Shown: piece by piece, positions 15,433 to 29,525 of the stretch
How positions within the stretch are numbered: position 1 is the stretch's first letter
How the letters are laid out: every line of letters begins with the position of its first letter
DNA from: a virus
Virus record (IMG/VR): IMGVR_UViG_3300048062_000147
DNA length: 53,442 bases
Reading direction: 5' to 3' (one strand)
Notes under the pieces: generated by a model
The model's input: the letters and a program-made list of their open reading frames with translations, nothing else
Told to the model about the DNA's origin: nothing
Databases searched by the model: none
Program-made: the position numbers and the translations under genes

Positions 15433-16143
15433 TTATTTCTTTAAGGCTGCCTTCACAGCCATCTGTGCTACACGAGAAACGCCTGAGAAAAAATCTTCGT
15501 CCATAACGTCGCTAACCTTATCCGCTTGGTCGTCATCTTCGTCGTTAGCTTGGTCGTCACCTTCATAGTAATCGCTCTCCATAAAAGACGCTGTGGAATC
15601 TTCAAACAGATCGTAGTCTGTGGACGCACCACCTGCGTGGTGGTACTTACCCCAGAAGTCTTTAGCGGTGATGTCGCCGCTGGCATACTTGCCGAGGTCT
15701 GCACTAGGATGCTGCAGGTACTTTCCAATAAACAATACCTTCTGCTGTTCAGCTGTTAGTTTAGAAGCGTCTAGTGTTTTTTGCTTGTAGGCTTCTTCTA
15801 GCCAATCAGGAATAGGTATGTTATTATCCTTGAGCTCTCTGTAGGTTCTATTCACTGAAGTTATGCCGTCGGCTTTCTCACCAGCCTCAAACATAAACAG
15901 CCCCTTGCCTACACCTTGAGGTACTAAGTTCCCCTCGGCATCTTCTATCAATTGTACAGCACTAGATTTCATACGCTGACGTGGACCTGTTTCGTGATAT
16001 GCGATGATATCCATTAGCTGTTCGTACTGCTGGGGTGTTCCACCTTTCTTAGAGATCAGGTGATTCATCATAGCATCGTACCCACTACCATTATTCTTTT
16101 TGGTCTTGATAGGATTGTTGTTTGCCTTCTTCTTTATTATCAT
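15433..16143 (-). CDS. Lytic transglycosylase (SLT/lysozyme-like) protein, probably virion-associated
   Basis: I place the start at ATG 16143 (MIIKKK...). It has a catalytic-Glu context IAYHETG followed by GVGKGLFMFE, as in SLT-family murein hydrolases. It is the first gene of the late arm. Confidence 0.55.
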   Translation of the reverse strand: MIIKKKANNNPIKTKKNNGSGYDAMMNHLISKKGGTPQQYEQLMDIIAYHETGPRQRMKSSAVQLIEDAEGNLVPQGVGKGLFMFEAGEKADGITSVNRTYRELKDNNIPIPDWLEEAYKQKTLDASKLTAEQQKVLFIGKYLQHPSADLGKYASGDITAKDFWGKYHHAGGASTDYDLFEDSTASFMESDYYEGDDQANDEDDDQADKVSDVMDEDFFSGVSRVAQMAVKAALKK

Positions 16144-16147
16144 AGTG

Positions 16148-16155
16148 CAAAGGTA
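16148..16155 (-). promoter_or_regulatory. -7 box TACCTTTG, only 4 nt from ATG (TTTGCACTATG module)
   Basis: Perfect TAnnTTTG. The same 11-mer TTTGCACTATG recurs at 45241-45251 ahead of gene 44284..45243. Confidence 0.4.
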
Positions 16156-16170
16156 CAGAATTGAACACAT

Positions 16171-17296
16171 ATATAGAGAGAGGTGTAAATAGCTGTTATA
16201 TTGTTAGGCTTGCCTAAACTAGAAGGAATGGAAGGTTTAGTTTGAGCTAAACCTTCTGTAACCCCCGTAAATATTAATTTGACTTTCTCCGAAAAAAGTT
16301 GTAACTTCGCTCTAGATTCCTCACGCAATCAGGATTCTTTCCACTTGAATCCTTCTTGCTTTATCTAATTACTCACCCTGTAGCTGGAGGGTCGTCGCCC
16401 CAAGCAGAGACCCGCTCAGCTACTTTGTGAGAGCGGCAAGAACTATCCCTACAGTAAACACCCCCAGATCCTGTCAGTTCGCACAGCTTTGAGTAGCTGT
16501 TTGCTCCTGCCAGTATCCTCCTTTCTCCTGCACGAAAACCTCCCCCGACTGGCTTGATCCTACTTAACAGCTTTATGTCCATTCAAAATCGCTCTAAACA
16601 GCTCATATACCCGTTAAAAAAGGGATGAGTAATGTTTAGGTGGGGGATAATATATAGTATAGGACGTTGGCGCACGCAATCCGAAGTGGAATCTGAAACC
16701 CCACCCCCTACAGATAAAGCATTGATTGTCAAAACTTTTAGCGTTTGCTATCTACAGTACTGGTTCAGCTATAGCTATGTAACTATCTGGCTTTCAGTCG
16801 GTTAGCTGATCCGGTGGAACAGACTAGTTGCCGGAGGTGTTCTGTCCATAGGTGGAACAATCCCCACCCCACCATACACCTCAACCCAACACACTCTCAC
16901 ACGCTCACACATCCACGCTCCTGCCGTTTCTCAGGGCTGATGGATACCAACCTTGGGGCAGTCCCTCACGTGCGCATAGGTCATACTATGGCAAGATTTA
17001 GATGCCTAGGTATTTACACTCAATTGTGAAAAAAAGTGTGTATAACCCTTGTGTAATCCAAATAGCTGTCGTACCATTGTAGTGTTGAAAGGGACAAAGC
17101 GCCGTAACGCTGACTCCGACTAGTTAGGTCTAGTGACGTTCTTTACTTATTGGATACTAAGTTATAATCAGTCTGATGAGGGGTAGCAATCTACTACCCT
17201 GAGTGCTTCGGCACTCGACCCCTGAGATGGGGCGAAACCACGGGATATGGGGAGCATATCAACTAATAACAGCGGAAGCGCTTCGGTGCTTCCGTT
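16171..17296 (+). ncRNA. Candidate large structured non-coding RNA / non-coding control region between the diverging arms
   Basis: About 1.15 kb without a credible ORF. By hand count, G+C is 100/180 at 16381-16560, against 18/60 in early gene sequence at 18361-18420. There are many local hairpins, including 16231-16256 (10 bp), 16331-16353, 16412-16436, 16481-16504, 16602-16629, 17180-17200, 17201-17216 (UUCG loop), 17219-17232, 17244-17260 and 17274-17293 (UUCG loop with a G-U pair valid only on the plus strand). The strand and the boundaries are inferred. Confidence 0.45.
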
Positions 17297-17313
17297 GGTT
17301 ACTGATAACTTAA
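17158..17313 (+). ncRNA. Hammerhead-ribozyme-like element (type I topology); predicted cleavage between U17300 and A17301
   Basis: Core C3-A9 is CTGATGA at 17173-17179, and G12-A14 is GAA at 17234-17236. Helix I pairs 17158-17172 with 17301-17312 (5+7 bp with a 3-nt bulge). Helix III pairs A17237-C-C-A17240 with T17296-G-G-T17299, including the A15.1-U16.1 pair. H17 is U17300. Helix II is non-canonical: a single G17180-C17233 pair closes a junction of three hairpins. Confidence 0.4.
17274..17313 (+). promoter_or_regulatory. Hairpin + 17-mer cassette 1
   Basis: Hairpin GGAAGCGC-UUCG-GUGCUUCC at 17274-17293, then a 3-nt spacer, then GGTTACTGATAACTTAA at 17297-17313. ATG 17326 is 12 nt downstream. 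No U-tract. Confidence 0.9.
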
Positions 17314-17325
17314 ATTATATGTCTT

Positions 17326-17529
17326 ATGAAGAATCCACTAGTAGATGTCAAGCCATTCGTATTCCGAGGTGATGTAATCGGAAAGGTATTCACCTTCGAT
17401 TTGGGCAACTACCTGAACTACGGAGTCATTGAGATAACCACCGACTTGAGCGGTGATATTGTAGATTACTCAGGTTGTGGTTACAACACGGCAAATACTC
17501 TGATTCGATGTGTGCATCTAACAGATTAG
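17326..17529 (+). CDS. Early small protein, unknown function
   Basis: 67-aa ORF between cassettes 1 and 2. Confidence 0.6.
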   Translation: MKNPLVDVKPFVFRGDVIGKVFTFDLGNYLNYGVIEITTDLSGDIVDYSGCGYNTANTLIRCVHLTD

Positions 17530-17540
17530 AATAGATTAAA

Positions 17541-17574
17541 GAAGGGCAACGCCCTTCGGTCACTGATAACTTAA
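17541..17574 (+). promoter_or_regulatory. Hairpin + 17-mer cassette 2 (C variant)
   Basis: Hairpin GAAGGGC-AAC-GCCCTTC at 17541-17557, abutting GGTCACTGATAACTTAA at 17558-17574. ATG 17587 is 12 nt downstream. Confidence 0.9.
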
Positions 17575-17586
17575 TACTATTGCTTT

Positions 17587-17757
17587 ATGACAACGCAACA
17601 AATCACCCCGAAACAAGCTAACGAATTACTCGATTGCATCCGTAGAGACCTCGACACCCTCATTGGATTGGGTGAGAGCTACGCACACTTTCAATCTGCT
17701 CAGGCTACCCACAAGTACCTGAAGAAAGCAAAGAAAGCCCTTGAGGGACTTTCTTGA
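17587..17757 (+). CDS. Early small protein (56 aa, below the ORF-track cutoff)
   Basis: MTTQQITPKQANELLDCIRRDLDTLIGLGESYAHFQSAQATHKYLKKAKKALEGLS. It fills the space between cassettes 2 and 3 exactly, with the standard 12-nt spacing. Confidence 0.6.
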   Translation: MTTQQITPKQANELLDCIRRDLDTLIGLGESYAHFQSAQATHKYLKKAKKALEGLS

Positions 17758-17766
17758 TTGACCCAA

Positions 17767-17798
17767 GCCTCCGATGGAGGCGGTTACTGATAACTTAA
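17767..17798 (+). promoter_or_regulatory. Hairpin + 17-mer cassette 3
   Basis: GCCTCC-GAT-GGAGGC at 17767-17781, abutting GGTTACTGATAACTTAA at 17782-17798. ATG 17811 is 12 nt downstream. Confidence 0.9.
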
Positions 17799-17810
17799 AA
17801 CTATTGCCTT

Positions 17811-18008
17811 ATGAACGCAAAAGAATTAATTGAGCAACTCACTCATCTAGCAAAGTCTAATGGTGTAGCACTAGAGAACATTGATGTTTACTACCGATTT
17901 GATTTTGATTCCGATATCGAAGATGTTAATTTCTTGTTCGAAGATTTATACGACCAAGAGACAAACAGCGTACTAGAAACCATAGTACTGACAACTAAAT
18001 CGGAATAA
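17811..18008 (+). CDS. Early small acidic protein
   Basis: 65-aa ORF, D/E-rich. Confidence 0.6.
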   Translation: MNAKELIEQLTHLAKSNGVALENIDVYYRFDFDSDIEDVNFLFEDLYDQETNSVLETIVLTTKSE

Positions 18009-18015
18009 CGATTAA

Positions 18016-18048
18016 GCCTCCTTCGGGAGGCGGTTACTGATAACTTAA
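18016..18048 (+). promoter_or_regulatory. Hairpin + 17-mer cassette 4
   Basis: GCCTCC-TTCG-GGAGGC at 18016-18031, abutting the 17-mer at 18032-18048. ATG 18060 is 11 nt downstream. Confidence 0.9.
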
Positions 18049-18059
18049 ACAAACGAATT

Positions 18060-18305
18060 ATGGACAACGTAAAAGAGCAATTGCTGTCAATGGAGATTGG
18101 TATCTACCAAGAAATCACATTCAGCAATGGTATACTTAAATCCACAAAAGAATTGTGCCGTATCGCAGAAGGCGAATGGGTAGTAGAATCTCATAGCTGT
18201 GGATGGTCTACAGCCTATATGAATCTAGATACAGCCGTAGCTTACCTAGAGGGAAAAATCAAGGGATACGAACTAAGATGGGAGGACAACGAAATCATCC
18301 TATAA
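18060..18305 (+). CDS. Early small protein
   Basis: 81-aa ORF. Confidence 0.6.
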   Translation: MDNVKEQLLSMEIGIYQEITFSNGILKSTKELCRIAEGEWVVESHSCGWSTAYMNLDTAVAYLEGKIKGYELRWEDNEIIL

Positions 18306-18310
18306 ACTAA

Positions 18311-18344
18311 GAGGTGCAATGCACCTCGGTCACTGATAACTTAA
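18311..18344 (+). promoter_or_regulatory. Hairpin + 17-mer cassette 5 (C variant)
   Basis: GAGGTGC-AAT-GCACCTC at 18311-18327, abutting GGTCACTGATAACTTAA at 18328-18344. ATG 18356 is 11 nt downstream. Confidence 0.9.
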
Positions 18345-18355
18345 TTAAATGCTTT

Positions 18356-18604
18356 ATGAAAAATCATTTCGAAGAAATTAAATTTCACATCTTACTTGCT
18401 GAATACACTTCAACGAGGATTGAAGAAATGTCTGCAAATCGGATATTCAATTCAGGTAAAGAAGAGGGTGAGGACTTTGAATTTATTTACTCTTTACAAG
18501 ATAACTACTTTGATAGAGTAATGAGATTGAGTGTAGGTCAATCTATGCCCTTTCTAACTAGCAGAGATGCATCTTGGTACTCTGTAATTGTTAGGGTAAA
18601 ATAA
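18356..18604 (+). CDS. Early small protein
   Basis: I moved the start to ATG 18356 (MKNHFEEIKF...). The track start at 18314 (GTG) would translate the cassette itself. Confidence 0.6.
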   Translation: MKNHFEEIKFHILLAEYTSTRIEEMSANRIFNSGKEEGEDFEFIYSLQDNYFDRVMRLSVGQSMPFLTSRDASWYSVIVRVK

Positions 18605-18614
18605 CAAGATTCAA

Positions 18615-18648
18615 GAAGGGCAACGCCCTTCGGTTACTGATAACTTAA
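18615..18648 (+). promoter_or_regulatory. Hairpin + 17-mer cassette 6
   Basis: GAAGGGC-AAC-GCCCTTC at 18615-18631, abutting the 17-mer at 18632-18648. ATG 18660 is 11 nt downstream. Confidence 0.9.
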
Positions 18649-18659
18649 AACCTTTTACA

Positions 18660-18854
18660 ATGGAAAAGCTAACAAACGAAATCATCGAACGCCTAGAATA
18701 CGTAGATGGAGATGGCGTTGAATTCGAGGTGTACCAAGATCCCGAAACCAACAAATTCTACCAAGTAGAGATTGAGATTGTGAGACACTTTGAATGTGCT
18801 GAAGAGGTGAGTGGGAACTCCTTTATTGATTTGGACAAGCTCATCGATTTTTAA
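18660..18854 (+). CDS. Early small acidic protein
   Basis: 64-aa ORF. Confidence 0.6.
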   Translation: MEKLTNEIIERLEYVDGDGVEFEVYQDPETNKFYQVEIEIVRHFECAEEVSGNSFIDLDKLIDF

Positions 18855-18861
18855 TGAGCAA

Positions 18862-18894
18862 CCCTCCTGATGGAGGGGGTTACTGATAACTTAA
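18862..18894 (+). promoter_or_regulatory. Hairpin + 17-mer cassette 7
   Basis: CCCTCC-TGAT-GGAGGG at 18862-18877, abutting the 17-mer at 18878-18894. ATG 18906 is 11 nt downstream. Confidence 0.9.
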
Positions 18895-18905
18895 ACAAAT
18901 GTATT

Positions 18906-19205
18906 ATGATGATTAATGCTAATGAGACTATGGTCTTTAACGATGTATTGATACACACAGCTAGAACTTGGGAGCGTATAAGGGTAGACCGAGAACATAA
19001 AGAAATGCCTTACGACAATATCGAGTCTTGCGACTGTATCGTATCTGTTGCTGGAGATATTTTTGAGTCCGAGCTGATTCAAAAGTTTCTAAAGTCTACT
19101 GCGAGAGAGCGTAGAGGATTTTGGGAAAGAGAAACCAAGGAAGGTTTCTCGGATGACTACATTGAGAACCTTGCACACGATAAGATATGCAATGACTACT
19201 TGTGA
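18906..19205 (+). CDS. Early small protein
   Basis: I moved the start to ATG 18906 (MMINANE...), which is in frame with the track ORF. Confidence 0.6.
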   Translation: MMINANETMVFNDVLIHTARTWERIRVDREHKEMPYDNIESCDCIVSVAGDIFESELIQKFLKSTARERRGFWERETKEGFSDDYIENLAHDKICNDYL

Positions 19206-19209
19206 TTAA

Positions 19210-19243
19210 GAGAGGCTAAGCCTCTCGGTTACTGATAACTTAA
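19210..19243 (+). promoter_or_regulatory. Hairpin + 17-mer cassette 8
   Basis: GAGAGGC-TAA-GCCTCTC at 19210-19226, abutting the 17-mer at 19227-19243. ATG 19256 is 12 nt downstream. Confidence 0.9.
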
Positions 19244-19255
19244 TTTTATTGAACT

Positions 19256-19477
19256 ATGCTTTACGCAATGTACTACCAACTAGGAAATACCATAACGTAC
19301 ATTATCTCAGGAGATAATTACGAGGACACCTACTACTACGAAATCGATGCCAACATCGATGATTGCAAGGTCATTGTATCGCCTTTCGATTGTGATGATT
19401 CACCACGATTTAGAGACTACATCAAGCACCTGATTGAACGTGCAACGCCAACCAGATTTCAAGTGGTGTACGAATAG
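19256..19477 (+). CDS. Early small protein
   Basis: 73-aa ORF. Confidence 0.6.
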   Translation: MLYAMYYQLGNTITYIISGDNYEDTYYYEIDANIDDCKVIVSPFDCDDSPRFRDYIKHLIERATPTRFQVVYE

Positions 19478-19482
19478 CAAAA

Positions 19483-19515
19483 GCCACCTTCGGGTGGCGG
19501 TTACTGATAACTTAA
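19483..19515 (+). promoter_or_regulatory. Hairpin + 17-mer cassette 9
   Basis: GCCACC-TTCG-GGTGGC at 19483-19498, abutting the 17-mer at 19499-19515. ATG 19526 is 10 nt downstream. Confidence 0.9.
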
Positions 19516-19525
19516 ATTGATGACT

Positions 19526-19894
19526 ATGAAAACTTTATTAGCTGTTATTGTAGCGCTGACCTTTGGGTCTTGCGCTCCAAATGTCTACGGAGATTTATAC
19601 GAGGTTACCAGCGTGGTAACTAAGCCGAACGAAGGACCTATCGAGGTCTACTCATCTACTAGAGATTTTGTCCGCACCGATATCAAAATGACCAACGACA
19701 GCATCTTCCTTATGGAGGCTGTAGGTCAGGACAACAAATTGGTGGTGACTCAATCATTCGATTACTTGAGTGTAGTGGACTTCAAAGAGGGCAATAATGA
19801 AGAAGGTGAGCCATTCGAACTCTCACTAATTAATGCCGACTCAACGTGTGTTACTACGTACTTGTTGTACGACTTGAATAACCACTACGAGTAG
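19526..19894 (+). CDS. Early lipoprotein candidate
   Basis: I place the start at ATG 19526 (MKTLLAVIVALTFGSCAPN...): a signal peptide with Cys at position 17. Confidence 0.55.
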   Translation: MKTLLAVIVALTFGSCAPNVYGDLYEVTSVVTKPNEGPIEVYSSTRDFVRTDIKMTNDSIFLMEAVGQDNKLVVTQSFDYLSVVDFKEGNNEEGEPFELSLINADSTCVTTYLLYDLNNHYE

Positions 19895-19900
19895 TCTAAG

Positions 19901-19934
19901 AGGGGCTGTTGCCCCTTGGTTACTGATAACTTAA
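19901..19934 (+). promoter_or_regulatory. Hairpin + 17-mer cassette 10
   Basis: AGGGGC-TGTT-GCCCCT at 19901-19916, then a 1-nt spacer and the 17-mer at 19918-19934. ATG 19946 is 11 nt downstream. Confidence 0.9.
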
Positions 19935-19945
19935 TTAAACGTATT

Positions 19946-20212
19946 ATGGACTACCCATTCAAAGAGGGTGATACTTACTTCACCCTAGAAGGAATAACCT
20001 TCGAAGAGCTTCAGCTGTTAAACAGCAATGGAGAGAACCCACAAATCTTCACAGTGGTAGAGAGCACTTGGGACTTCGTGAGCGAAGAGATGCACGATGA
20101 AGACCCAAACAAAGTGTACTTCAAAACACGTGAAGAGGCAGAATCTCGCAACATCACATTTGATGAACTTGCAGAGGCTGTTGAGGCTAGTGCTAAAAAA
20201 ATCCCTCGTTGA
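19946..20212 (+). CDS. Early small acidic protein
   Basis: I moved the start to ATG 19946 (MDYPFKEGD...). The stop codon lies inside the hairpin of cassette 11. Confidence 0.6.
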   Translation: MDYPFKEGDTYFTLEGITFEELQLLNSNGENPQIFTVVESTWDFVSEEMHDEDPNKVYFKTREEAESRNITFDELAEAVEASAKKIPR

Positions 20213-20234
20213 GGGATGGTTACTGATAACTTAA
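20201..20234 (+). promoter_or_regulatory. Hairpin + 17-mer cassette 11
   Basis: ATCCCTC-GTT-GAGGGAT at 20201-20217, abutting the 17-mer at 20218-20234. ATG 20246 is 11 nt downstream. Confidence 0.9.
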
Positions 20235-20245
20235 ACAAATGTATT

Positions 20246-20407
20246 ATGACTGCGAATGATTTTGCATCTATCTGCGCCAACGCTGAGGTATCTGCGTTTG
20301 TGGCGCTAGAGAACAAACGTGTTGTTGAGCTCCTGAAGAAGGACAAGAAGCAACCATCAATTAATAACCAACTAATCCTTTCTGGATTGTTACAAACAGA
20401 ATTTTGA
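20246..20407 (+). CDS. Early small protein (53 aa)
   Basis: I moved the start to ATG 20246 (MTANDFASICANAEV...). Confidence 0.55.
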   Translation: MTANDFASICANAEVSAFVALENKRVVELLKKDKKQPSINNQLILSGLLQTEF

Positions 20408-20408
20408 T

Positions 20409-20762
20409 ATGAACAAAGTAGATTTTATACAGCTGTTACAAGCGCACGACTGGACCTACCAGTACAGCGATGACCCCAGCAAGTACAAACGAGGTCAGGC
20501 TCAACGTGAAGCCATCAACAAGGCTAGAAAGGAGCTTGGCGTAGAGGGTGATGCCCTCTACGAAACCTACAGCAAAGTACCTGAGGCTAGAATCGTTATC
20601 CCGGTGAAAGCCGAACGCACTATGCCCAAGGTAATGTGCCGTAACACTGGTCGTATGGGGCACTTAATCGATAAGAGTCCGAACGGATTTATGGAGGTTA
20701 AATTCAGCGACGGATACCGCACGGAATTCCTACGCCAGACCGACATCATCAAGCTAGGCTAA
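20409..20762 (+). CDS. Early protein, unknown function
   Basis: 117-aa ORF that starts 1 nt after the upstream stop. It has no cassette of its own. Confidence 0.6.
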   Translation: MNKVDFIQLLQAHDWTYQYSDDPSKYKRGQAQREAINKARKELGVEGDALYETYSKVPEARIVIPVKAERTMPKVMCRNTGRMGHLIDKSPNGFMEVKFSDGYRTEFLRQTDIIKLG

Positions 20763-20786
20763 GTCTAGCGGTTACTGATAACTTAA
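20753..20786 (+). promoter_or_regulatory. Hairpin + 17-mer cassette 12 (weak hairpin)
   Basis: GCTAG-N7-CTAGC at 20753-20769, abutting the 17-mer at 20770-20786. ATG 20798 is 11 nt downstream. Confidence 0.85.
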
Positions 20787-20797
20787 ATTAATGTTTT

Positions 20798-21094
20798 ATG
20801 ACAAAAGACACAATGACCATTTTTTATGAGATTGAAAGAGAGGTTAAGCCTTTCTTTGACCAGGCAAGAATCAACCTATATGGTGATGTAGCAAAGACAT
20901 CGTTAAAAGGAACACAGCGAGATGAATACATCTTTGATGGGTATGTGGAGTATTTTAAATCAATACCCAAAGATAAAGTTGGGAAACGAACCTATGTATT
21001 TGGCAAGGTGATTAAGTATGGTAGGATTCTCAGCAAAAAGCATAACCATCCATACAATGTATTCGAGATGTGCAACCTTGTGACTAAGGAGTAA
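20798..21094 (+). CDS. Early protein, unknown function
   Basis: 98-aa ORF. Confidence 0.6.
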   Translation: MTKDTMTIFYEIEREVKPFFDQARINLYGDVAKTSLKGTQRDEYIFDGYVEYFKSIPKDKVGKRTYVFGKVIKYGRILSKKHNHPYNVFEMCNLVTKE

Positions 21095-21106
21095 AAACTA
21101 AACAAA

Positions 21107-21140
21107 GCCCCTCGCTGAGGGGCGGTTACTGATAACTTAA
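21107..21140 (+). promoter_or_regulatory. Hairpin + 17-mer cassette 13
   Basis: GCCCCTC-GCT-GAGGGGC at 21107-21123, abutting the 17-mer at 21124-21140. ATG 21153 is 12 nt downstream. Confidence 0.9.
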
Positions 21141-21152
21141 ATTTATAATCTT

Positions 21153-21620
21153 ATGGGATTAGATATGTACTTGCACAAGAAAACATTTGTGCGTAATTGG
21201 GACCATATGAAAGAGTCCGAAAGAAATCACGTGTCCGTAAAGGGTGCTGAATCAAAACACATCGTAGGCGCTAGAGTATCGGAGATTACCGAGCAAATAG
21301 CCTATTGGAGAAAGGCAAACCACATACACAATTGGTTTGTTGAGAACGTTCAGAATGGCGAAGATGACTGCGGTGAATACTACCTCACCGAAGAGCACGT
21401 TAAGTCGCTTAACAAAGCTTGTAAGAAGGTCTTGGATGACAATTCTTTAGCTGAAGAGCTGTTACCTACAGCTAGTGGTTTCTTCTTTGGGGGCGTAGAG
21501 TACGACGAGTACTACTTTGAATCAGTGTTAGACACTTGGAATATAACAAGTGCCTTGATTCGGGAGATGAAAAGTTGGAATAGCGTTAGAACTGACCTTT
21601 CTTACCAAGCTTCTTGGTAG
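21153..21620 (+). CDS. Conserved-looking phage protein (MGLDMYL...YWRKANHIHNWF motif), unknown function
   Basis: 155-aa ORF. Confidence 0.65.
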   Translation: MGLDMYLHKKTFVRNWDHMKESERNHVSVKGAESKHIVGARVSEITEQIAYWRKANHIHNWFVENVQNGEDDCGEYYLTEEHVKSLNKACKKVLDDNSLAEELLPTASGFFFGGVEYDEYYFESVLDTWNITSALIREMKSWNSVRTDLSYQASW

Positions 21621-21629
21621 AAAATTAAG

Positions 21630-21662
21630 GAGGGCATTGCCCTCTGGTTACTGATAACTTAA
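21630..21662 (+). promoter_or_regulatory. Hairpin + 17-mer cassette 14 (last copy)
   Basis: GAGGGC-ATT-GCCCTC at 21630-21644, then a 1-nt spacer and the 17-mer at 21646-21662. ATG 21673 is 10 nt downstream. Confidence 0.9.
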
Positions 21663-21672
21663 TTAAATGACT

Positions 21673-21936
21673 ATGAAATACGATTTAGAAGTAACCGGAG
21701 TAGTGTACACACAAACTCCTATGGGGACATCTTATAGATGCACAACGAACGTGGATGGTGTAACAATACACTACACTAGCATCATAGGGATAACCTTCAT
21801 AGAGGGCACGTGGTCGAAGATAAAACACTACCAGCACCTAACAGAGGCACAGCTAGAAAACCTGATCGATAAGTACGAGGAGAGTAAAAGCTTGCACGTT
21901 AACCAATTAAACAGTAGATTTGACTATGGAAACTGA
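21673..21936 (+). CDS. Hypothetical protein
   Basis: I place the start at ATG 21673 (MKYDLEV...), using the same TGACTATG context as 19526. Confidence 0.55.
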   Translation: MKYDLEVTGVVYTQTPMGTSYRCTTNVDGVTIHYTSIIGITFIEGTWSKIKHYQHLTEAQLENLIDKYEESKSLHVNQLNSRFDYGN

Positions 21937-22129
21937 ATTTATGCAGACCTTAAGCAAGGCTGAATTAAAAGCGGTTGAGCTTGGTTTGAGATTCCTATTG
22001 GATGACATAACCGAAGAGCTTAAGCACTACGAAGAGTCACGGATGGATGAAGCTGTGCAGACCTCAAGGGAGGTCTTAGAAGTACTTTATAGCGTACTTA
22101 AAAAGGTACGTGAAAAGGGGATGGAGTAA
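21926..22129 (+). CDS. Hypothetical protein
   Basis: I place the start at ATG 21926 (METEFMQ...). It overlaps the upstream gene by 11 nt. Confidence 0.5.
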   Translation: METEFMQTLSKAELKAVELGLRFLLDDITEELKHYEESRMDEAVQTSREVLEVLYSVLKKVREKGME

Positions 22130-22140
22130 AAGATAAGACT

Positions 22141-22278
22141 ATGAAAGAAGACTTGATGGAGATATTCAAGGATATGAATATCGTTACCATATTTGTAATC
22201 GTAATGCTATTACCAATGGCTATAGGTTACGTTTTAACGACAGCTATTCAAAAGCTGTTTGGTTTATTCACCAGATAA
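22141..22278 (+). CDS. Possible 45-aa single-pass membrane peptide
   Basis: MKEDLMEIFKDMNIVTIFVIVMLLPMAIGYVLTTAIQKLFGLFTR. It fills an otherwise empty gap and has a clear TM helix. Confidence 0.4.
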   Translation: MKEDLMEIFKDMNIVTIFVIVMLLPMAIGYVLTTAIQKLFGLFTR

Positions 22279-22289
22279 AAACAAAAGAG

Positions 22290-22490
22290 ATGACAAAAGA
22301 AGAAACAATCAAGAAGATGAATGAGAGCACCAACCTTATGACCAAGGGTCAGATGATGGATGAGCTCTACTCAGTAATCGAAAGGATGAAAAACAGAGCT
22401 GAAGCAGATTACGATGCTCTGAATCTGTTAGATGCATCACGCATCGAATGTCTACTAGAAAACTACGAGATTCTAGCTAAGACTGAATAA
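22290..22490 (+). CDS. Hypothetical protein
   Basis: 66-aa ORF. Confidence 0.55.
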   Translation: MTKEETIKKMNESTNLMTKGQMMDELYSVIERMKNRAEADYDALNLLDASRIECLLENYEILAKTE

Positions 22491-22512
22491 GTAACTAAAT
22501 TAAATTAACTAT

Positions 22513-23094
22513 ATGACTTTAGGAGAAAAGCTGTCTTTGATACAGCAAGAATTCAAGGCTCAAAAGAGCCGTTACAACAGCTTCGGTAAGTACAACTTCC
22601 GTTCAGCTGAAGACATCTTAGAAGGACTGAAGCTCTTCAACAAGAAGTACAAGGTATACTTTGTGGTTAAGGAAGAGGTAACGACCTCTTTCATCGGTGC
22701 GACAACTCCGGTGATGGTCTCTAAGGCTACGATACACGATATCGAAAGCGATGCATCAGTCTCGGCAACAGCCATTGTGGGTGTTGACCTAGCGCAGAAG
22801 GGGATGCAAATACCACAAGCATTCGGTAGTGCTTCTTCTTATGGGAAGAAGTACGCACTTGGAAACCTATTATTGATCGATGACACCGCAGATGCAGATG
22901 CTACGAACAGCCACGGCAACTCCGCAGCTCCGAGCAAAGCCCCTGCGAAGAAGGATGATAGCTTCCAGCAGTCTATCGATTACTTGAAGTCTACTCCAGA
23001 CGACAAGAAGGGAGCTGTACTGCAGATGATTTTAGACAAATACGGCAACAAGTTTTCTGAGAAACAAGTAGCCGCACTTAGAAAGTTTGTCTAA
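22513..23094 (+). CDS. erf: ERF-family single-strand annealing protein
   Basis: KSRYNSFGKYNFRSAEDILEGLK and GSASSYGKKYALGNLLLIDD match the hallmark ERF segments. An exonuclease gene follows directly. Confidence 0.7.
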   Translation: MTLGEKLSLIQQEFKAQKSRYNSFGKYNFRSAEDILEGLKLFNKKYKVYFVVKEEVTTSFIGATTPVMVSKATIHDIESDASVSATAIVGVDLAQKGMQIPQAFGSASSYGKKYALGNLLLIDDTADADATNSHGNSAAPSKAPAKKDDSFQQSIDYLKSTPDDKKGAVLQMILDKYGNKFSEKQVAALRKFV

Positions 23095-23903
23095 TGGAGT
23101 TTGCTAAGTTATTGGTGGAGCGGACGGGTAAACCATACCTGTCCTACTCCGCCCTAAAATACGCCGCAGATGGTGGGAAACAGCAGGATATGAAGCTGTT
23201 TGAACTCTATGTGCGGGGGTTACTGAAGAAGGATAGCCCAGCGCTAACCTTCGGTAGCTTATACGATATGATGCTACTCGAACCGGAGAAGGTTAATGAG
23301 AGCTTCTACGTTCTTGACGACAGCGAAATCATCGCTGAACTAAAAGACGAATACAAGAACCCCAGAGCCTCGAAAGCCTACAAGGAATGGAAGGCGTCAC
23401 AAGAATCGGATGGGCGCACTCAGGTGAATGAGGAGGATTGGCAGATGGCTGTCGATATGATTAATCGTTTGGACAGCTCCGAGATTGTGGACCCTGAGAC
23501 CGGGGAGATGATCCCGGTACGCAACTTCCTTCAGGGACAAGCTCAGGTTGAATTCAATACTTGGATAGAAGAGATACCGGTACGAGGTTTCTTCGATGTA
23601 TTGGGTGACGGCTTCGTAACGGACAGCAAGTCCACAAGAAACGTATATGGCTTCAAGTACGATGTCAAGTCTTTTGACTATGACATCCAAGCCTACATCT
23701 ACACTCAGGTAGCGAAGACAGATACCTTCTATTGGGTAGCTCAAGGCAAGTCTAAGCCCTATCTAACAGCTGTTTACAAAGCTTCTCCGCAGATTATTGC
23801 TTCTGGGGAGCGTAAGTTTTGGTCCGGCGTTAGAAACATTGAGAGATGGCTCCGAGACCCATCAAAGGGCACGGAGACATTTGCTATCTACCAAGAGATA
23901 TGA
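23094..23903 (+). CDS. PD-(D/E)XK (YqaJ/RecB-like) exonuclease
   Basis: 269 aa, start overlapping the erf stop. It has the acidic-Lys motif FDVLGDGFVTDSKS and is the classical partner of an annealing protein. Confidence 0.6.
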   Translation: MEFAKLLVERTGKPYLSYSALKYAADGGKQQDMKLFELYVRGLLKKDSPALTFGSLYDMMLLEPEKVNESFYVLDDSEIIAELKDEYKNPRASKAYKEWKASQESDGRTQVNEEDWQMAVDMINRLDSSEIVDPETGEMIPVRNFLQGQAQVEFNTWIEEIPVRGFFDVLGDGFVTDSKSTRNVYGFKYDVKSFDYDIQAYIYTQVAKTDTFYWVAQGKSKPYLTAVYKASPQIIASGERKFWSGVRNIERWLRDPSKGTETFAIYQEI

Positions 23904-23927
23904 GTGTATAAATTTGTTTATTAATCC

Positions 23928-23965
23928 GAGACAACATACATTTGTCTCACAACTTAAATTTAATT
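23928..23965 (+). promoter_or_regulatory. Hairpin + ACTTAAATTTAATT element (second cassette type)
   Basis: GAGACA-N9-TGTCTC at 23928-23948, followed by ACAACTTAAATTTAATTAG. ATG is at 23970. It shares only the AACTTAA part with the 17-mer. Confidence 0.5.
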
Positions 23966-23969
23966 AGTT

Positions 23970-24233
23970 ATGGCAGAAGAGAAAATTTTTGCAAACGGAT
24001 TCTCTTTCAAGAGAAGAGAGAACGCTCCTGATTTTGTTATCGGGAATCAATCAATCAAGGTTGACGATGCTATCAGCTTTCTGAACAAGCATCAAAAGAA
24101 CGGTTGGGTCAACCTTGACGTCAAGCAAGCAAAGAATGGTAACTATTACCTAGAACTTGACACTTGGGAGCCGAAAGGCGGCGCTAAGGCGACACACAAC
24201 CCAACAACACCAAGCGGTGACCTTCCGTTCTAA
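23970..24233 (+). CDS. Small SSB-like protein
   Basis: 87 aa ending in GDLPF, which matches the D-(I/L)-P-F tip typical of the bacterial SSB C-terminus. It lies next to the recombination genes. The OB fold is not verifiable by eye. Confidence 0.45.
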   Translation: MAEEKIFANGFSFKRRENAPDFVIGNQSIKVDDAISFLNKHQKNGWVNLDVKQAKNGNYYLELDTWEPKGGAKATHNPTTPSGDLPF

Positions 24234-24252
24234 ACAGGTTATCAGTGATAGG

Positions 24253-24286
24253 GGCGGAGCTGAGAGGCTCCGCCTTCCTATTTATT
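24253..24286 (+). terminator. Intrinsic terminator candidate
   Basis: GGCGGAGC-TGAGAG-GCTCCGCC at 24253-24274, followed by the T-rich TTCCTATTTATT. Confidence 0.45.
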
Positions 24287-24300
24287 ACCTAGAGGTAGAG

Positions 24301-24507
24301 ATGGCTTACTTCAAGACAAAAGCTTGGAGAAAGATGAACACGTGGGTGGTCACCTTCGTGGAAGACAAAGACAGAATACTTAAGGATGATTTCAAAACAA
24401 ACTCCAGACTCAACGATGAATTCTACGGGTCAAAATTCAAAGGACAGAGAGGGCTCAGAATCGACAGAGTCATCAGCAAAAAAAGAATCGGATACACCAA
24501 CTGGTGA
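24301..24507 (+). CDS. Hypothetical protein
   Basis: I place the start at ATG 24301 (MAYFKTKAW...). The longer track ORF overlaps the SSB-like gene and the terminator hairpin. Confidence 0.5.
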   Translation: MAYFKTKAWRKMNTWVVTFVEDKDRILKDDFKTNSRLNDEFYGSKFKGQRGLRIDRVISKKRIGYTNW

Positions 24508-24780
24508 TCAGATATTTATCTACTGGGAACAATGAGAGAAACACATCCAATATTAGACAGCAAAGAATTCAAGTCGCTGCCTTGGCGCAAACGTATTATC
24601 GTTAGGCTCAAGGTGGCTTTCGCTGAATTCATATCAATGCTTTAACGAGGTATAACATAATGTCGGGGAGGAGTATTTTTTGGTTTGACATTTGCCTTCG
24701 TGGTGAAGGCGCCTCCCCACATTTACCTGACTAAACGTGTACCAAAGTGGTACACGAGTAACCTTCAAAACAAAAGAGAG

Positions 24781-25335
24781 ATGAATTGGCTAAAACGATT
24801 ATTCACCAGGGAAAAGAAAGAAAAATGGACAGCTACTTACTGTTCGGATAACTACGAAGTTAGTAACCTAGGAAGGGTGCGGAGTCTAGACAGGCTTACC
24901 ACTGACGGAAGGCTTTATAAAGGAAGACTAAAGAAGTTAAGCCTATGTAAAACTGGCTACCTTAAAGTGAATGTCACCATTGATGGGAAAAATAAAGTAT
25001 ATAACGTCCATCAGTTAGTATACTGCTCCTTTAACAAGGGTGAGCTGAGTGGCTATAAATATGTAGTAGATCATATTAACGGTGACCCTTTAGACAATAG
25101 ATTAGATAACCTTCAATTTGTTTCGCAATGGGAAAATGTTATGAAGGGGAGAGCAAACAAGTACAACTTACCTAAGTACATTACAGCTTGTCCTTACCAC
25201 TACGACAGGAGTAAGTTGATGTATTGTTACATACCTGTCATTAACAAAAAGCAGCGTGTTCTTAAATCGTCTATAGATCTACAAAAAGTTTTGAAGTTTA
25301 AAGAGGAGCATCAAAAAAGTTTGTCTATCGAATAG
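24781..25335 (+). CDS. HNH homing endonuclease (NUMOD4 + HNH_3 type)
   Basis: YEVSNLGRVRS (NUMOD4-like) and VDHINGDPLDNRLDNLQ (HNH). I place the start at ATG 24781, because the track's upstream extension is a structured leader. Confidence 0.9.
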   Translation: MNWLKRLFTREKKEKWTATYCSDNYEVSNLGRVRSLDRLTTDGRLYKGRLKKLSLCKTGYLKVNVTIDGKNKVYNVHQLVYCSFNKGELSGYKYVVDHINGDPLDNRLDNLQFVSQWENVMKGRANKYNLPKYITACPYHYDRSKLMYCYIPVINKKQRVLKSSIDLQKVLKFKEEHQKSLSIE

Positions 25336-25338
25336 TAG

Positions 25339-25446
25339 AAACCTTTAACACCAAAGAGAAATGAAAAAAGTAAGGGTATAACCTCACGGAAATTGAATTG
25401 AGTCAAGTTATAACCTTACAAAACCTTTAACACCAAAGAGAAATGA
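25339..25446 (+). repeat. 26-nt perfect direct repeat AAACCTTTAACACCAAAGAGAAATGA (25339-25364 and 25421-25446)
   Basis: Both copies were read directly. Each ends in an ATG. The first opens a 6-codon ORF and the second a 28-codon ORF. Confidence 0.9.
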
Positions 25447-25529
25447 TAGAGCTAAAATGGTTTGTGGTTTTTTTGACTATAGCATTGAGTATGATATTCA
25501 TATACCTCACAGGAAAGGATGATAATTAA
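25443..25529 (+). CDS. Possible 28-aa membrane peptide
   Basis: MIELKWFVVFLTIALSMIFIYLTGKDDN, starting at the ATG of the second repeat copy. Confidence 0.3.
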   Translation: MIELKWFVVFLTIALSMIFIYLTGKDDN

Positions 25530-25710
25530 TAACGCAATAGAGATGAAAGAAGAGAACTTGAACATTGAGTGGTGGCATAAGAGGATGATCCTATATGCCT
25601 TGAAAAAATTTGATACACAACAAGAAGCGGCAGATGCCCTTGGTTGTAGCACTAGACATTTAATCAGGAAAAAAAGAGAGTACTATGAAGACAAACTACA
25701 AGACAAGTAG
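25519..25710 (+). CDS. Fis/NtrC-type HTH DNA-binding protein
   Basis: QEAADALGCSTRHLIRKKREY resembles the HTH_8 pattern (LGISRRTLYRKLKEY). Confidence 0.55.
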   Translation: MIINNAIEMKEENLNIEWWHKRMILYALKKFDTQQEAADALGCSTRHLIRKKREYYEDKLQDK

Positions 25711-25858
25711 AACAGCTGAAGCTCGTGAGACAATCATTAGGATTGCTCGCTACGCTAGTAAGAATATGATGAGAACTAAAAATAAATCAGAGCAGTACGC
25801 AAAGATTATCGATGCGTGTATGCGTGATATCAATGACTATGGAATCGAACAAGATTAA
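25685..25858 (+). CDS. Possible 57-aa basic protein
   Basis: MKTNYKTSRTAEARETIIRIARYASKNMMRTKNK..., an ORF below the track cutoff that bridges two genes. Confidence 0.35.
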   Translation: MKTNYKTSRTAEARETIIRIARYASKNMMRTKNKSEQYAKIIDACMRDINDYGIEQD

Positions 25859-26102
25859 AGATGCTATCATAGAAAGATACGCTGATAGTGATGACATATT
25901 ATTCGCTGACGGTCTTGACAATGCAATTGTTGGGTTTGACCCAAACAACTGGAAGGTTGTATACTCACGTAGCATATGCATCTCTATACTCTGTGAAGAT
26001 ATGAGTGAAGAGGAAGCCATTGACCACCTTGAGTACAACACATTCAATGCATACGTGGGGAAAAAGACTCCATTGTGGATAGATGACTTTGGGTGGTACT
26101 GA
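25833..26102 (+). CDS. Hypothetical protein
   Basis: I place the start at ATG 25833 (MTMESNKIKD...). Confidence 0.55.
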   Translation: MTMESNKIKDAIIERYADSDDILFADGLDNAIVGFDPNNWKVVYSRSICISILCEDMSEEEAIDHLEYNTFNAYVGKKTPLWIDDFGWY

Positions 26103-26206
26103 TGACAGCTCCTGATGTTATTTTAGCTGTTGTTGTAATTGCTCTATGGAATGGGTACTTAATTTATAGAATGAATAGAGATGACAAGAAAAAGAAAGCA
26201 CGTTAA
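26102..26206 (+). CDS. Possible 34-aa membrane peptide
   Basis: MTAPDVILAVVVIALWNGYLIYRMNRDDKKKKAR. Its ATG overlaps the upstream TGA. Confidence 0.3.
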   Translation: MTAPDVILAVVVIALWNGYLIYRMNRDDKKKKAR

Positions 26207-26366
26207 AGAGGTTCAGAAGTATTTAGATATGCTTATGCTGGACCAAGTAAACCTCAGCATATATGCTAGTAGGTTTGGATGGAGTGATCAGATACAGCAC
26301 CAGCTGTCAAACTCAGCACTGCTAATTAGAAAGTATCAACGCCGACTCAGGCTAATCAAGATGTAA
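26181..26366 (+). CDS. Hypothetical basic protein
   Basis: 61-aa ORF. Confidence 0.45.
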   Translation: MTRKRKHVKEVQKYLDMLMLDQVNLSIYASRFGWSDQIQHQLSNSALLIRKYQRRLRLIKM

Positions 26367-26713
26367 TGAGGGAATGCAGTATTTGTAAAGAGCTAAAGAC
26401 GATAGACAACTTCCACAGAAGAGGTAATGGTCATAGAACAGAATGCAAGTCCTGCAAATCTATAATAGACTCCAAGAGAAAAAGAGATAGAGATCCTTTC
26501 TTTTCAGTGTACTACATTCCTGAACATCATTACGTAGGTATGACTAATTCTATTAAATATAGAATGCAAGAACACAAAACGAAAGGAAAGATAGTAGACG
26601 GCTATGAAGTAATAGGCACCTATGAAAGAGCTGTAGATGCACATCTCGTTGAAACTACGCTGCATACTATGGGATACTTTGGGTTCTATTATAAAGGAAG
26701 TAAAAAGAAATAG
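26366..26713 (+). CDS. GIY-YIG-like nuclease with N-terminal CxxC...CxxC zinc finger
   Basis: CSICKE...CKSCK followed by VYYIPEHHYVGMTNSIKYRMQEH, which fits the pattern GIY-x-YVG-x-R-x-H. Confidence 0.55.
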   Translation: MRECSICKELKTIDNFHRRGNGHRTECKSCKSIIDSKRKRDRDPFFSVYYIPEHHYVGMTNSIKYRMQEHKTKGKIVDGYEVIGTYERAVDAHLVETTLHTMGYFGFYYKGSKKK

Positions 26714-26715
26714 AT

Positions 26716-27162
26716 ATGATTTACTCAGCTAGAAAATTTAACTCAAGAGAATACGATAAGTATGACAGTTGGGCTAAGGATATTGCATCAGTTTTTTTAG
26801 AGTCTAGAGGTCATTACATTATTAGCGGTGAAGAGGATTACAATCACGACCTAGTAACAAAGAGATATAATCAGCTGTATTACTTTGAGCTAGAGGTTAA
26901 GGTAGGATATCCATTCACATCTGATCAAGATTATAGATTTGACACTGTTAGTTTCTTAGGCAGGAAGAAAAGGCTTCACGATATCAAGCCTTTTTTCTAT
27001 GTTATAATTTGCAAAGAAACTTCAGCAGCACTGTATTGCACTTCTGATATTATTTATGACGACGATCACATAGAGTATGTGGATGTTAATTCGAACAATA
27101 GAACTGGTAATGATAAAATGTATAGAGTTCCAGTAAGTAAATGCGGATTTTTTAATTTATAG
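26716..27162 (+). CDS. PD-(D/E)XK nuclease-fold protein candidate
   Basis: HDLV...YYFELEVKVG fits D-x(n)-E-x-K. Confidence 0.4.
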   Translation: MIYSARKFNSREYDKYDSWAKDIASVFLESRGHYIISGEEDYNHDLVTKRYNQLYYFELEVKVGYPFTSDQDYRFDTVSFLGRKKRLHDIKPFFYVIICKETSAALYCTSDIIYDDDHIEYVDVNSNNRTGNDKMYRVPVSKCGFFNL

Positions 27163-27164
27163 AT

Positions 27165-27371
27165 ATGGCATATTTAGACAACAAAGAACACAAGAAGATT
27201 ATCGACTGCGTACTCGAACAGAACGCAAAGCTGTTCCAGAACTTAGGCGAGGACTGCCCCAAGGCAGACTATGAAAAAGCAAAGCTTGAAGAACGTAGGA
27301 AGCTACGTAGGATAATGGATTTAGATCCTGAGAAAATAGGTAGGCTAGTTAAAGACTCACTCGATGACTAA
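27165..27371 (+). CDS. Hypothetical protein
   Basis: 68-aa ORF. Confidence 0.5.
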   Translation: MAYLDNKEHKKIIDCVLEQNAKLFQNLGEDCPKADYEKAKLEERRKLRRIMDLDPEKIGRLVKDSLDD

Positions 27372-27852
27372 GGATGATATCAAAAGAGTTTGTGACAACA
27401 CAAAGAATCTCTTAGTAAAAAAGAACGAGGCATACGGCGACAGCGCACTCAATCCACTAGGCATCTTCGGAAATGGAGATGCCGTCGTGTCTCTAGGGGC
27501 TAGGATGGATGACAAGCTGATGCGCCTGAAGGGTCTTGGCATAGGCAAAGAATCGATAGATACTTTGTACGACCTACACGGATACATAACTTTACTTATT
27601 ATCGCAATCGAAAGAAAAGAAAACCTAAACAGCTTAGATTCTGTATGTGATGACGATAGTAATACAACAAAATTAATTTCAGATGCTAGAGAAAACCATA
27701 ACGATGTTCAAGAACGTCAGGGATACGACCGACCCACAACACACTACCATACAAATCTCACTGGAGCGTATCAAGAGTGGCAAACAGAAATCCTTGATAG
27801 AGAGGGTACGTGGAGTACACAGCGTGGACCAGAACGGGAATCCGATTCCTGA
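27364..27852 (+). CDS. Small helical protein (DUF1599/MazG-like pattern KNEAYGDS...DKLMRL); 3' end uncertain
   Basis: The N-terminal 90 aa look like a real domain. The last 56 codons overlap the primase gene out of frame and are low-complexity. Confidence 0.45.
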   Translation: MTKDDIKRVCDNTKNLLVKKNEAYGDSALNPLGIFGNGDAVVSLGARMDDKLMRLKGLGIGKESIDTLYDLHGYITLLIIAIERKENLNSLDSVCDDDSNTTKLISDARENHNDVQERQGYDRPTTHYHTNLTGAYQEWQTEILDREGTWSTQRGPERESDS

Positions 27853-29506: not shown

Positions 29507-29517
29507 TTGCTATTGAT

Positions 29518-29525
29518 TAGATTTG
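29518..29525 (+). promoter_or_regulatory. TAGATTTG box, 4 nt from ATG 29530
   Basis: Perfect TAnnTTTG on the plus strand. The very short distance to the ATG makes its function uncertain. Confidence 0.3.

Follow-up and report, generated by a model that had tools for sequence, protein, structure and literature searches.

The window, by which we mean the whole stretch of DNA analysed here, is the 53,442-nucleotide (nt) sequence of the virus in IMG/VR record IMGVR_UViG_3300048062_000147. Nucleotides 1-127 are identical to nt 53316-53442, which makes the window a complete genome of 53,315 bp, either circular or terminally redundant. It encodes a portal protein, a large terminase (TerL), a primase/helicase, tail proteins, a protein with a crAss 'muzzle' domain and a 2908-amino-acid (aa) protein with LPD38 and helix-turn-helix (HTH) domains. 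The terminase is closest to those of Flavobacterium and Cellulophaga podoviruses (42-47% identity), which therefore places the host in Bacteroidota; the phage appears to be a marine podovirus of Flavobacteriia, and the lack of Shine-Dalgarno sequences in front of its early open reading frames (ORFs) is consistent with such a host. In the early region, the 17-nt motif GGTYACTGATAACTTAA occurs in 14 copies, all on the plus strand, between 17297 and 21662 (chance expectation 0.03). Here we analyse a putative hammerhead ribozyme at 17158-17313, which ends in the first of these copies, and the possibility that the other thirteen copies are its substrates.

Direct reading of 16400-18400 places CTGATGA at 17173-17179 and GAAA at 17234-17237. 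A 3-nt bulge interrupts the complementarity between the strand TAAGTTATAATCAGT (17158-17172) and ACTGATAACTTA (17301-17312), which can be read as 5+7 or 6+6 bp. A17237-C-C-A17240 stands opposite T17296-G-G-T17299, and U17300 takes hammerhead position 17, with the scissile bond of site 1 predicted at U17300/A17301. A first-pass annotation had proposed these coordinates for the core, the arms and position 17, and every one of them was borne out. The features are as follows.

17006..17045, plus strand: candidate early promoter region, ctaggtatttacactcaattgtgaaaaaaagtgtgtataa; the sole upstream stretch common to clades A and B (see below)
17091..17134, plus strand: conserved upstream hairpins (17098-17111; 17119-17134, conserved loop UUAGGU), with stem covariation in 17119-17134
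17158..17172, plus strand: helix I enzyme strand; proximal AUCAGU 17167-17172 with ACUGAU 17301-17306
17158-17163 with 17307-17312, plus strand: distal part of helix I, UAAGUU with AACUUA, bulge 17164-17166; some lineages only
17173..17179, plus strand: core C3 U4 G5 A6 U7 G8 A9 (CUGAUGA); invariant in 7 relatives found by the 17-mer alone, and also in clade B
17180..17233, plus strand: expanded 'helix II' domain; closing pair G17180-C17233 (10.1-11.1) encloses H1, H2 and H3
17181-17199, plus strand: H1, loop 17187-17193; compensatory changes in 5/6 pairs
17201-17216, plus strand: H2, UUCG loop; compensatory changes in 5/6 pairs
17219-17232, plus strand: H3; compensatory change in 1/4 pairs
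17234..17240, plus strand: core G12 A13 A14 and helix III enzyme strand A15.1 C C (A); GCGAAACCACG invariant, ACC opposite GGU 17297-17299
17244..17260, plus strand: H4, within the helix III loop, loop GGGAG 17250-17254; 4/6 stem pairs compensatory
17270..17297, plus strand: H5, core stem 17273-17294, UUCG loop; from the fold; homologues vary in sequence and retain the hairpin
17297..17313, plus strand: site 1, with GGU 17297-17299, H17 = U17300, ACUGAU and leader AACUUAA; ATG at 17326
17535..21662, plus strand: span of the thirteen core-less sites, at 17558, 17782, 18032, 18328, 18632, 18878, 19227, 19499, 19918, 20218, 20770, 21124 and 21646

We asked how often such a core would arise by accident. 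A core scan (CTGANGA, a 5-bp helix I, GAAA and a 3-bp helix III, all within 400 nt) returned 0.22 matches per random 53-kb sequence and at least one match in 21% of these sequences. The bare register-perfect core alone is within chance, and because it is so frequent in random sequence, the case must rest on comparison. Far beyond chance are the arms matching a 14-fold repeat, the covarying conservation in 40 relatives and the switching of the arm together with the repeat in another clade.

Scanning IMG/VR with the 17-mer alone gave six multi-copy contigs, unselected for the core. Each has a homologue of 17120-17329 (70-97% identity) within non-coding DNA that cannot otherwise be aligned, and each keeps the CUGAUGA/GAAA core and the arm alongside the array; none shows the array without them, which the first-pass annotation had named as refuting. 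The 7 relatives for which the 17-mer was the only query show AAUCAGUCUGAUGAGG and GCGAAACCACG without any variation, at an overall identity of only 70-76% and in non-coding DNA, and differ in the hairpins. Pattern scans of IMG/VR and the JGI metagenomes enlarged the set to 40 distinct homologues, our clade A, in which CUGAUGAGG, GCGAAACC and the arm AAUCAGU are kept. In the alignment of the 40, 95% of the cells are paired, 16 pairs show changes on both sides, and the pairs covary with a score of 0.399, where shuffled columns give 0.16 and slid partners about 0.04. All cells of H1, H2 and H3 are paired; covariation bears out the hairpin at 17244-17260 as well as these three, which the first-pass annotation had placed between G17180 and C17233. 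By this comparison, the element is a real structured RNA of the plus strand.

The two helices that would hold the substrate behave differently from the hairpins. The proximal 6 bp of helix I (AUCAGU/ACUGAU) are found in 40/40 homologues, with A-U changed to G.U in 6, and the distal 6-7 bp are lineage-specific and deleted in many relatives; the helix I of 5+7 bp proposed earlier holds in its proximal part and fails, as a general feature, in its distal part. Helix III, given earlier as 3-4 bp, stands with three invariant pairs, and its fourth pair (A17240-U17296) is kept in 34/40 homologues and missing from 6. Inside clade A, helix I (6 bp) and helix III (3 bp) are near-invariant and compatible with the hammerhead model, short of proof. 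Beyond this set, a covariance model of the element (R1) recovered only three already known contigs from 79 loci picked by terminase similarity; the relatives with about 68% identical TerL are either without the clade A version of the element or have the clade B version. A search of GenBank phage DNA with 15500-19500 gave no match. In a scan of 185,579 genomes of bacteria and archaea the core pattern matched 20 times; neither arm nor sites accompanied any of the 20, which are therefore chance matches, and no prophage copies were found.

Support for the pairing of arm and motif comes from clade B (L223, L340 and L345), whose member L223 was retrieved solely through terminase similarity (68% identity). 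Its repeat is different, hairpin-GGUH/UUAACCAA (the slash here and below marks the cut). A single CUGAUGA lies upstream of the first repeat copy, its 5' neighbour GGUUAA being the exact complement of UUAACC, and GAAACC and GGUU stand in a register matching clade A. Two further contigs share this version, and the downstream sites number 12 in L223 and 15 in L340. Between the clades, helix I has been replaced as a whole, from AUCAGU/ACUGAU in clade A to GGUUAA/UUAACC in clade B, directly flanking CUGAUGA and GGUU. The peripheral domains of clade B have no sequence in common with those of the window; what unites the two clades is the hammerhead core, a helix III of ACC/GGU and an arm that fits the repeat of the clade concerned. 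Position 17 is U, C or A, never G, at 29 clade B sites, and there is a C after A9 and a C before G12. The earlier proposal of a hammerhead whose arms are complementary to the motif, which had named covariation of arm and motif among relatives as a check, is supported by this switch. As a separate observation, in clade B (L223 5883-6054, minus strand; L340 3258-3434, plus strand) GAAACC is immediately followed by another AACC, which in the consensus fold pairs with GGUU of the enzyme's own site, and this pairing could free the enzyme helix III strand after cleavage, or form instead of it.

A third group, clade C (L260, L263, L266, L309 and L329; for example L263 2944-3991), has a compact canonical hammerhead (57-59 bits) with the helix III strand ACACC, followed by 2-4 core-less sites. 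These sites all read hairpin-GGUGUC/UUAACC (UUAACCAA after the cut), and their conserved stretch 5' of the cut is 5 nt (GGUGU), matching the longer enzyme strand.

The relatives also document what else occupies this position. Many compact textbook type I hammerheads occur at the equivalent slot before early ORFs, for example GUUACA-CUGAUGA-GUCC UGAGA GGAC-GAAAC-GCC GAGA GGC-GUC/UGUAACUUAAAUUA in L001. A covariance model built from 14 compact hammerheads of relatives (R2) gives further ones at 28-72 bits, and Rfam Hammerhead_1 scores two compact ones at 34.9 and 29.7 bits, one at the gathering threshold and the other just below. Pistol ribozymes (Rfam RF02679) are present in six relatives at 55-69 bits, against a gathering score of 34.5 (L090 1414-1478, minus; L083 851-915, plus; L142 9934-9998, plus; L010 11167-11231, plus; L076 5338-5402, minus; L110 3989-4053, minus), where they sit among early cassettes upstream of the big hammerhead; Rfam finds no pistol ribozyme in the window. 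In L076, cassettes with a cis-acting hammerhead or pistol come first, then the big element, then core-less 17-mer sites only, and each cleavage site and each core-less site lies about 25 nt before an ATG. The cis-ribozyme cassettes of the sister phages are without the 5' half of the 17-mer motif. In L001, a 67-aa ORF and a compact hammerhead are inserted at about 17087 (window numbering), and this hammerhead would cut just 5' of the 17091-17134 block. Ribozyme cuts at either end would there set the big element free as an RNA of about 228 nt. A very common family in IMG/VR loci L227-L340 is made up of compact type I hammerheads whose helix I is fixed (GGUUAA-CUGAUGA-...-GUC/UUAACCAA); they often form arrays of 3-5 per contig with one before each small ORF (L294 1258-2946; L320; L229; L296; L304) and are missed by the Rfam gathering score. 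Single genes flanked by hammerheads have been described in prophages (PMC3088659, Perreault et al. 2011).

Turning to the array, each of the thirteen core-less sites in the window has a hairpin of 6-7 bp directly against GGUY; ACUGAUAACUUAA follows, with an ATG 7-15 nt further on. Neither the core scan nor R2 found a CUGANGA/GAAA core near any of them. Since the window is a closed genome, it has exactly one hammerhead core, for 14 sites. The fourth position of the 17-mer, which corresponds to position 17, is T in 12 copies and C in 2; the first-pass annotation had noted this absence of G, and it extends to 212 distinct clade A sites collected with up to four mismatches allowed (U 181, C 29, A 2, G 0). 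In the same 212 sites GGU and ACUGAUA are 98-100% conserved and the 3' ACUUAA 78-96%. By this tally, the hammerhead NUH rule holds at every copy, beyond the first. Across 60 loci, 0/311 sites lie 5' of the core or on the opposite strand. When the 5' cleavage product is cofolded with sites 2-5, the minimum free energy (MFE) state is a bimolecular structure that resembles a hammerhead.

The hairpins in front of the sites are informative in their own right. Among 81 distinct hairpins there are 520 Watson-Crick, 35 G.U and 0 A.C pairs, which identifies them as sense-strand RNA elements, and 67/81 abut GGU. Their position is that of the helix III hairpin in compact hammerheads, and by analogy they could stack on a 3-bp intermolecular helix III. 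H5 is the counterpart at site 1 of the hairpin preceding every other site and, in the fold, can extend to sequester G17297. Promoter hairpins of the N4 type, which act on the template strand, were excluded, as the sense-strand G.U pairs would be C.A mismatches there. Intrinsic terminators were likewise rejected: the plus-strand hairpins have no U tract and are followed by GGUUACUGAU, and a terminator scan flags the minus strand only. Read on the minus strand, the site hairpins at 17273-21644 have T-rich tails and look terminator-like; they might block antisense transcription into the early region.

We consider it very probable, on comparative grounds, that the early transcript has at its 5' end, in 17158-17313, a genuine type I hammerhead of expanded structure, and we expect with equally high confidence that its RNA self-cleaves between U17300 and A17301. 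That the thirteen core-less copies are cut by the same ribozyme RNA is a more delicate proposal, which we hold to be at best slightly favoured. Taken as a whole, an expanded hammerhead with multi-site processing is our best explanation, at slightly better than even odds. The reading we favour for the 14-fold motif is that of a hammerhead cleavage site followed by a leader, rather than a promoter. The cut at site 1 would leave an upstream fragment ending in hairpin-GGUU with a 2',3'-cyclic phosphate, and the first early mRNA would begin with 5'-HO-ACUGAUAACUUAA, about 25 nt ahead of the AUG. Each core-less site would supply GGU for helix III, a non-G base at position 17, ACUGAU for helix I and its own hairpin for stacking. 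The ribozyme RNA, transcribed first and in some relatives possibly also excised by the flanking compact hammerhead, would then cut the downstream sites in trans, or at long range within one transcript. The polycistronic early RNA would be converted into single-gene mRNAs, each protected by a hairpin at its 3' end and headed by a uniform leader that lacks a Shine-Dalgarno sequence; in the sister phages an equivalent job might be done by a separate compact hammerhead or pistol per cassette. One hammerhead RNA might act, in trans or over long distances, as an endoribonuclease that recognises many substrates by their sequence, a proposition for which we see an even balance. In three phage clades the arrangement seems to have changed from a ribozyme in each cassette to a single ribozyme with many substrates. 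The hammerhead class is known; the expanded architecture is new, and the mode of one enzyme with many substrates is possibly new.

The unconstrained ViennaRNA fold of 17141-17316 (-64.8 kcal/mol, z = -5.2 against shuffles) contains helix I and H1-H5. An all-against-all column scan gave no supporting covariation for a pseudoknot of UGGA (17151-17154) with the H1 loop and yielded instead the H1 loop at 17190-17192 with the H4 loop at 17251-17253. The observed combinations (UCU/GGA, UCU/AGA, UUC/GAA and UCC/GGA) are 100% paired, a figure to be read against a -1 slid control that also pairs, at 95%. We regard this as a candidate kissing loop, which seems to replace the usual contact between stem I and stem II. 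If real, it would link the domains of helix II and helix III across the core and help an enzyme strand that holds its substrate by only 3 + 6 bp.

Several observations weigh against the ribozyme interpretation. The active secondary structure lies 9.6 kcal/mol above the MFE in the nearest-neighbour model, and helix III is absent from the MFE structure. Helix II is reduced to the single invariant pair G17180-C17233, which closes a four-way junction; beyond this pair the window element has no A9-adjacent helix II hairpin but a junction of three covarying hairpins instead. Helix III is 3 bp, invariant and without covariation inside clade A, and in clade B a 10.1-11.1 pair exists only if two hairpins are taken to be inserted after A9. 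Rfam gave no ribozyme match at the gathering score in the window and none at E <= 10 on 16300-17500 and 16000-33500, and in its hammerhead clan (CL00010) the element was unmatched at either limit. The use of hammerhead covariance models as a check on the first-pass annotation came out negative in this respect, in a test of low power: textbook compact hammerheads of the relatives escape the gathering score as well, and two long insertions in the element exceed the span of a 52-nt model. Model R2, run over the whole window with filters off, reached 12.3 bits at best, which is noise, and did not reach the element; there is therefore no compact hammerhead in the window. These irregularities would suit a non-catalytic structured RNA, an antisense-type regulator or protein scaffold that anneals to the motif copies or to copy 1 only, with CUGAUGA and GAAA conserved as junction or k-turn-like elements; tandem G.A motifs are also a feature of k-turns. 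We find this improbable, as C3, U4, G5, A6, G8, A9, G12-A14, A15.1-U16.1 and a non-G position 17 are kept in two clades with unrelated peripheral sequence, and related phages use canonical hammerheads interchangeably at the slot. Still less probable, and close to refuted, is a chance resemblance, in which the 17-mer and its hairpin are an N4-like or T7-like early promoter-terminator unit and the inverted partial copy at 17158-17172 fell beside CTGATGA by accident. The frequency of the core in random windows and the classic phage-promoter look of a motif before every early gene speak for it, but it has to contend with the conservation and covariation in 40 homologues, the joint switch of arm and motif in clade B, the core kept in 6/6 multi-copy contigs and the G.U pairs found on the non-template (sense) strand only (35 versus 0), contrary to template-strand hairpins of the N4 type.

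The trans step faces objections of its own. The predicted trans binding is -4 to -6 kcal/mol at 37 °C, with helix I alone contributing -5.8 kcal/mol in lineages without the distal arm. The triplet at most sites is GUU, which minimal hammerheads cleave slowly. The enzyme keeps its own GGUU tail once it has cut in cis, although this block of the helix III arm may be relieved by H5 sequestering G17297 or, in clade B, by the second AACC pairing with its own GGUU. The arm would match all 14 copies automatically if they were identical for another reason, and the literature searched holds no established natural trans-cleaving or multi-substrate phage hammerhead. One alternative is a hammerhead acting only in cis: it would cut site 1 alone and trim upstream read-through RNA, and the other 13 copies would be conserved as a phage or virion RNA polymerase promoter, a translation leader, a protein-binding site or cassette-shuffling repeats, with hairpins that merely stabilise or insulate the upstream mRNA. 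For this alternative the match of the arm to all copies comes free, since it must match site 1 regardless; the binding energies and the poor GUU triplet agree with it; early cassettes are in fact shuffled between relatives at the repeats; and the early region has no intergenic host-type -7 boxes, which the late genes have, so that some other promoter is needed. On the other hand, no recognisable phage RNA polymerase was found (small ORFs were not all scanned), there is no ORF of T7 size and unknown function, and the 2908-aa ORF has neither a DFDxD motif nor a PDB relative. The sister cassettes have cis ribozymes at the equivalent position and are without the 5' half of the motif, the most conserved parts of the motif are exactly the strands for helix III and helix I, which flank a wobble position that is never G, the hairpins abut GGU without a spacer and without a U tract, and the clade C sites conserve the 5 nt that match ACACC. 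We judge the cis-only account possible but doubtful. For the cutting of the 13 copies in trans, as the first-pass annotation suggested it might occur, the site conservation, the GGU-abutting hairpins, the location of sites 3' of the core and clade C offer indirect support, which leaves this part evenly poised.

Hammerheads are the best-studied small ribozymes, and their role in bacteria and phages is largely guesswork. In phage T7, intergenic hairpins of the early transcript are cut by host RNase III to give single-gene mRNAs with a stabilising 3' hairpin. The present system is alike in its hairpins between early genes and in the single-gene mRNAs with a 3' hairpin proposed as product; the T7 enzyme is a host protein that recognises double-stranded RNA, whereas here a phage RNA is proposed to recognise 9 nt by pairing. 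PeSL cassettes of T4-type phages combine a terminator with a sigma-70 early promoter and act at the level of DNA and transcription. They share with our array a repeated unit of hairpin plus motif before small early genes and the shuffling of cassettes between related genomes, but our hairpins show RNA-level selection and no U tract, and the motif would be a hammerhead substrate. The promoters of N4 virion RNA polymerase are template-strand hairpins with specific loop and stem bases (PMC4496689). There too, in a podovirus with a giant virion protein, early units have a hairpin with a loop of 3-4 nt just ahead of them; here, in contrast, the hairpin sequences are free, G.U pairs are found on the sense strand only and no signature of a virion RNA polymerase was found. 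The nearest relatives in kind are the type I hammerheads of phages and prophages, with the same catalytic core, an open helix I, an intergenic position directly before ORFs, a proposed cutting of polycistronic RNA into gene-length mRNAs and a tolerance of short stems II and III (PMC3088659). In that work stem II may be 1-2 bp, a one-pair stem II being active, and weak stems III are common. What differs here is that a single G-C pair of helix II closes a three-hairpin junction, that helix III encloses two hairpins and that one core is accompanied by 13 core-less sites. The discontinuous hammerhead of the mammalian Clec2 3' untranslated region, as outlined in PMC6765202 with reference to Martick et al. 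2008, has one enzyme and one substrate in one mRNA. By that outline, it resembles the present element in its enzyme and substrate strands separated by long RNA and in a substrate strand without a core, whereas here one enzyme would serve up to 14 substrates, in trans after the first cut (PMC6765202).

If the proposal is true, the element would be the first natural multi-substrate trans-cleaving small ribozyme and an RNA-only counterpart of the RNase III processing in T7. We know of no natural hammerhead acting in trans on several targets. The phage family provides a natural comparative series, with a ribozyme per early gene at one end and one elaborate hammerhead with a dozen bare sites at the other, and the series bears on whether a small ribozyme can be a true multiple-turnover enzyme in vivo. 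A candidate role of phage ribozymes emerges as mRNA punctuation, with uniform leaders lacking Shine-Dalgarno sequences and 3' hairpin protection in Bacteroidota hosts. The new architecture, in which a four-way junction replaces helix II and a candidate kissing loop bridges the helix II and helix III domains, could serve the engineering of short-arm trans-cleaving ribozymes. In addition, libraries of covariance models miss expanded hammerheads.

Upstream of the element, the stem at 17119-17134 covaries (ACUAG/CUAGU, GGUAG/CUACC and GCUAG/CUAGC), and the hairpins at 17091-17134 are probably part of the ribozyme RNA. The block at 17006-17045 (ctaggtatttacactcaattgtgaaaaaaagtgtgtataa) fits neither the sigma-70 nor the Bacteroidota consensus and is a candidate early promoter. 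Also in the ORF-free region, a C/A-rich, almost G-free tract (ccccaccccaccatacacctcaacccaacacactctcacacgctcacacatcc) lies at 16860-16925, and similar tracts are present in clade B at the equivalent place. The 5' flank CUUAUUGG (17146-17153) can pair with CUGAUGAG of the core (17173-17180), a pairing that is predicted when the 5' cleavage product is folded on its own; this is a possible inactive alternative conformation.

Elsewhere in the genome, host-type -7 boxes (TAnnTTTG) precede minus-strand late genes and plus-strand genes from 23.9 kb on. None was found between genes in 16.6-22.5 kb, and a sigma-70 scan of the early region gave fewer promoter-like sites than in shuffles. The 2908-aa protein matches large PHROG families of unassigned role; PDB and Pfam searches found no RNA polymerase in it, and it is not evidently a virion RNA polymerase. 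A homing-endonuclease-like ORF of the HNH/NUMOD4 type lies among replication and recombination genes.

51410, 45255, 16155, 15415, 13913, 8663, 6215, 3616 and 1647, minus strand: -7 boxes before late or middle genes
23909, 23937 and 29518, plus strand: -7 boxes before late or middle genes
34271-42997, minus strand: 2908-aa ORF with LPD38 and HTH domains
22513-23094: ERF, replication/recombination neighbour
23094-23903: PDDEXK, replication/recombination neighbour
24685-25335, plus strand: HNH/NUMOD4 homing-endonuclease-like ORF

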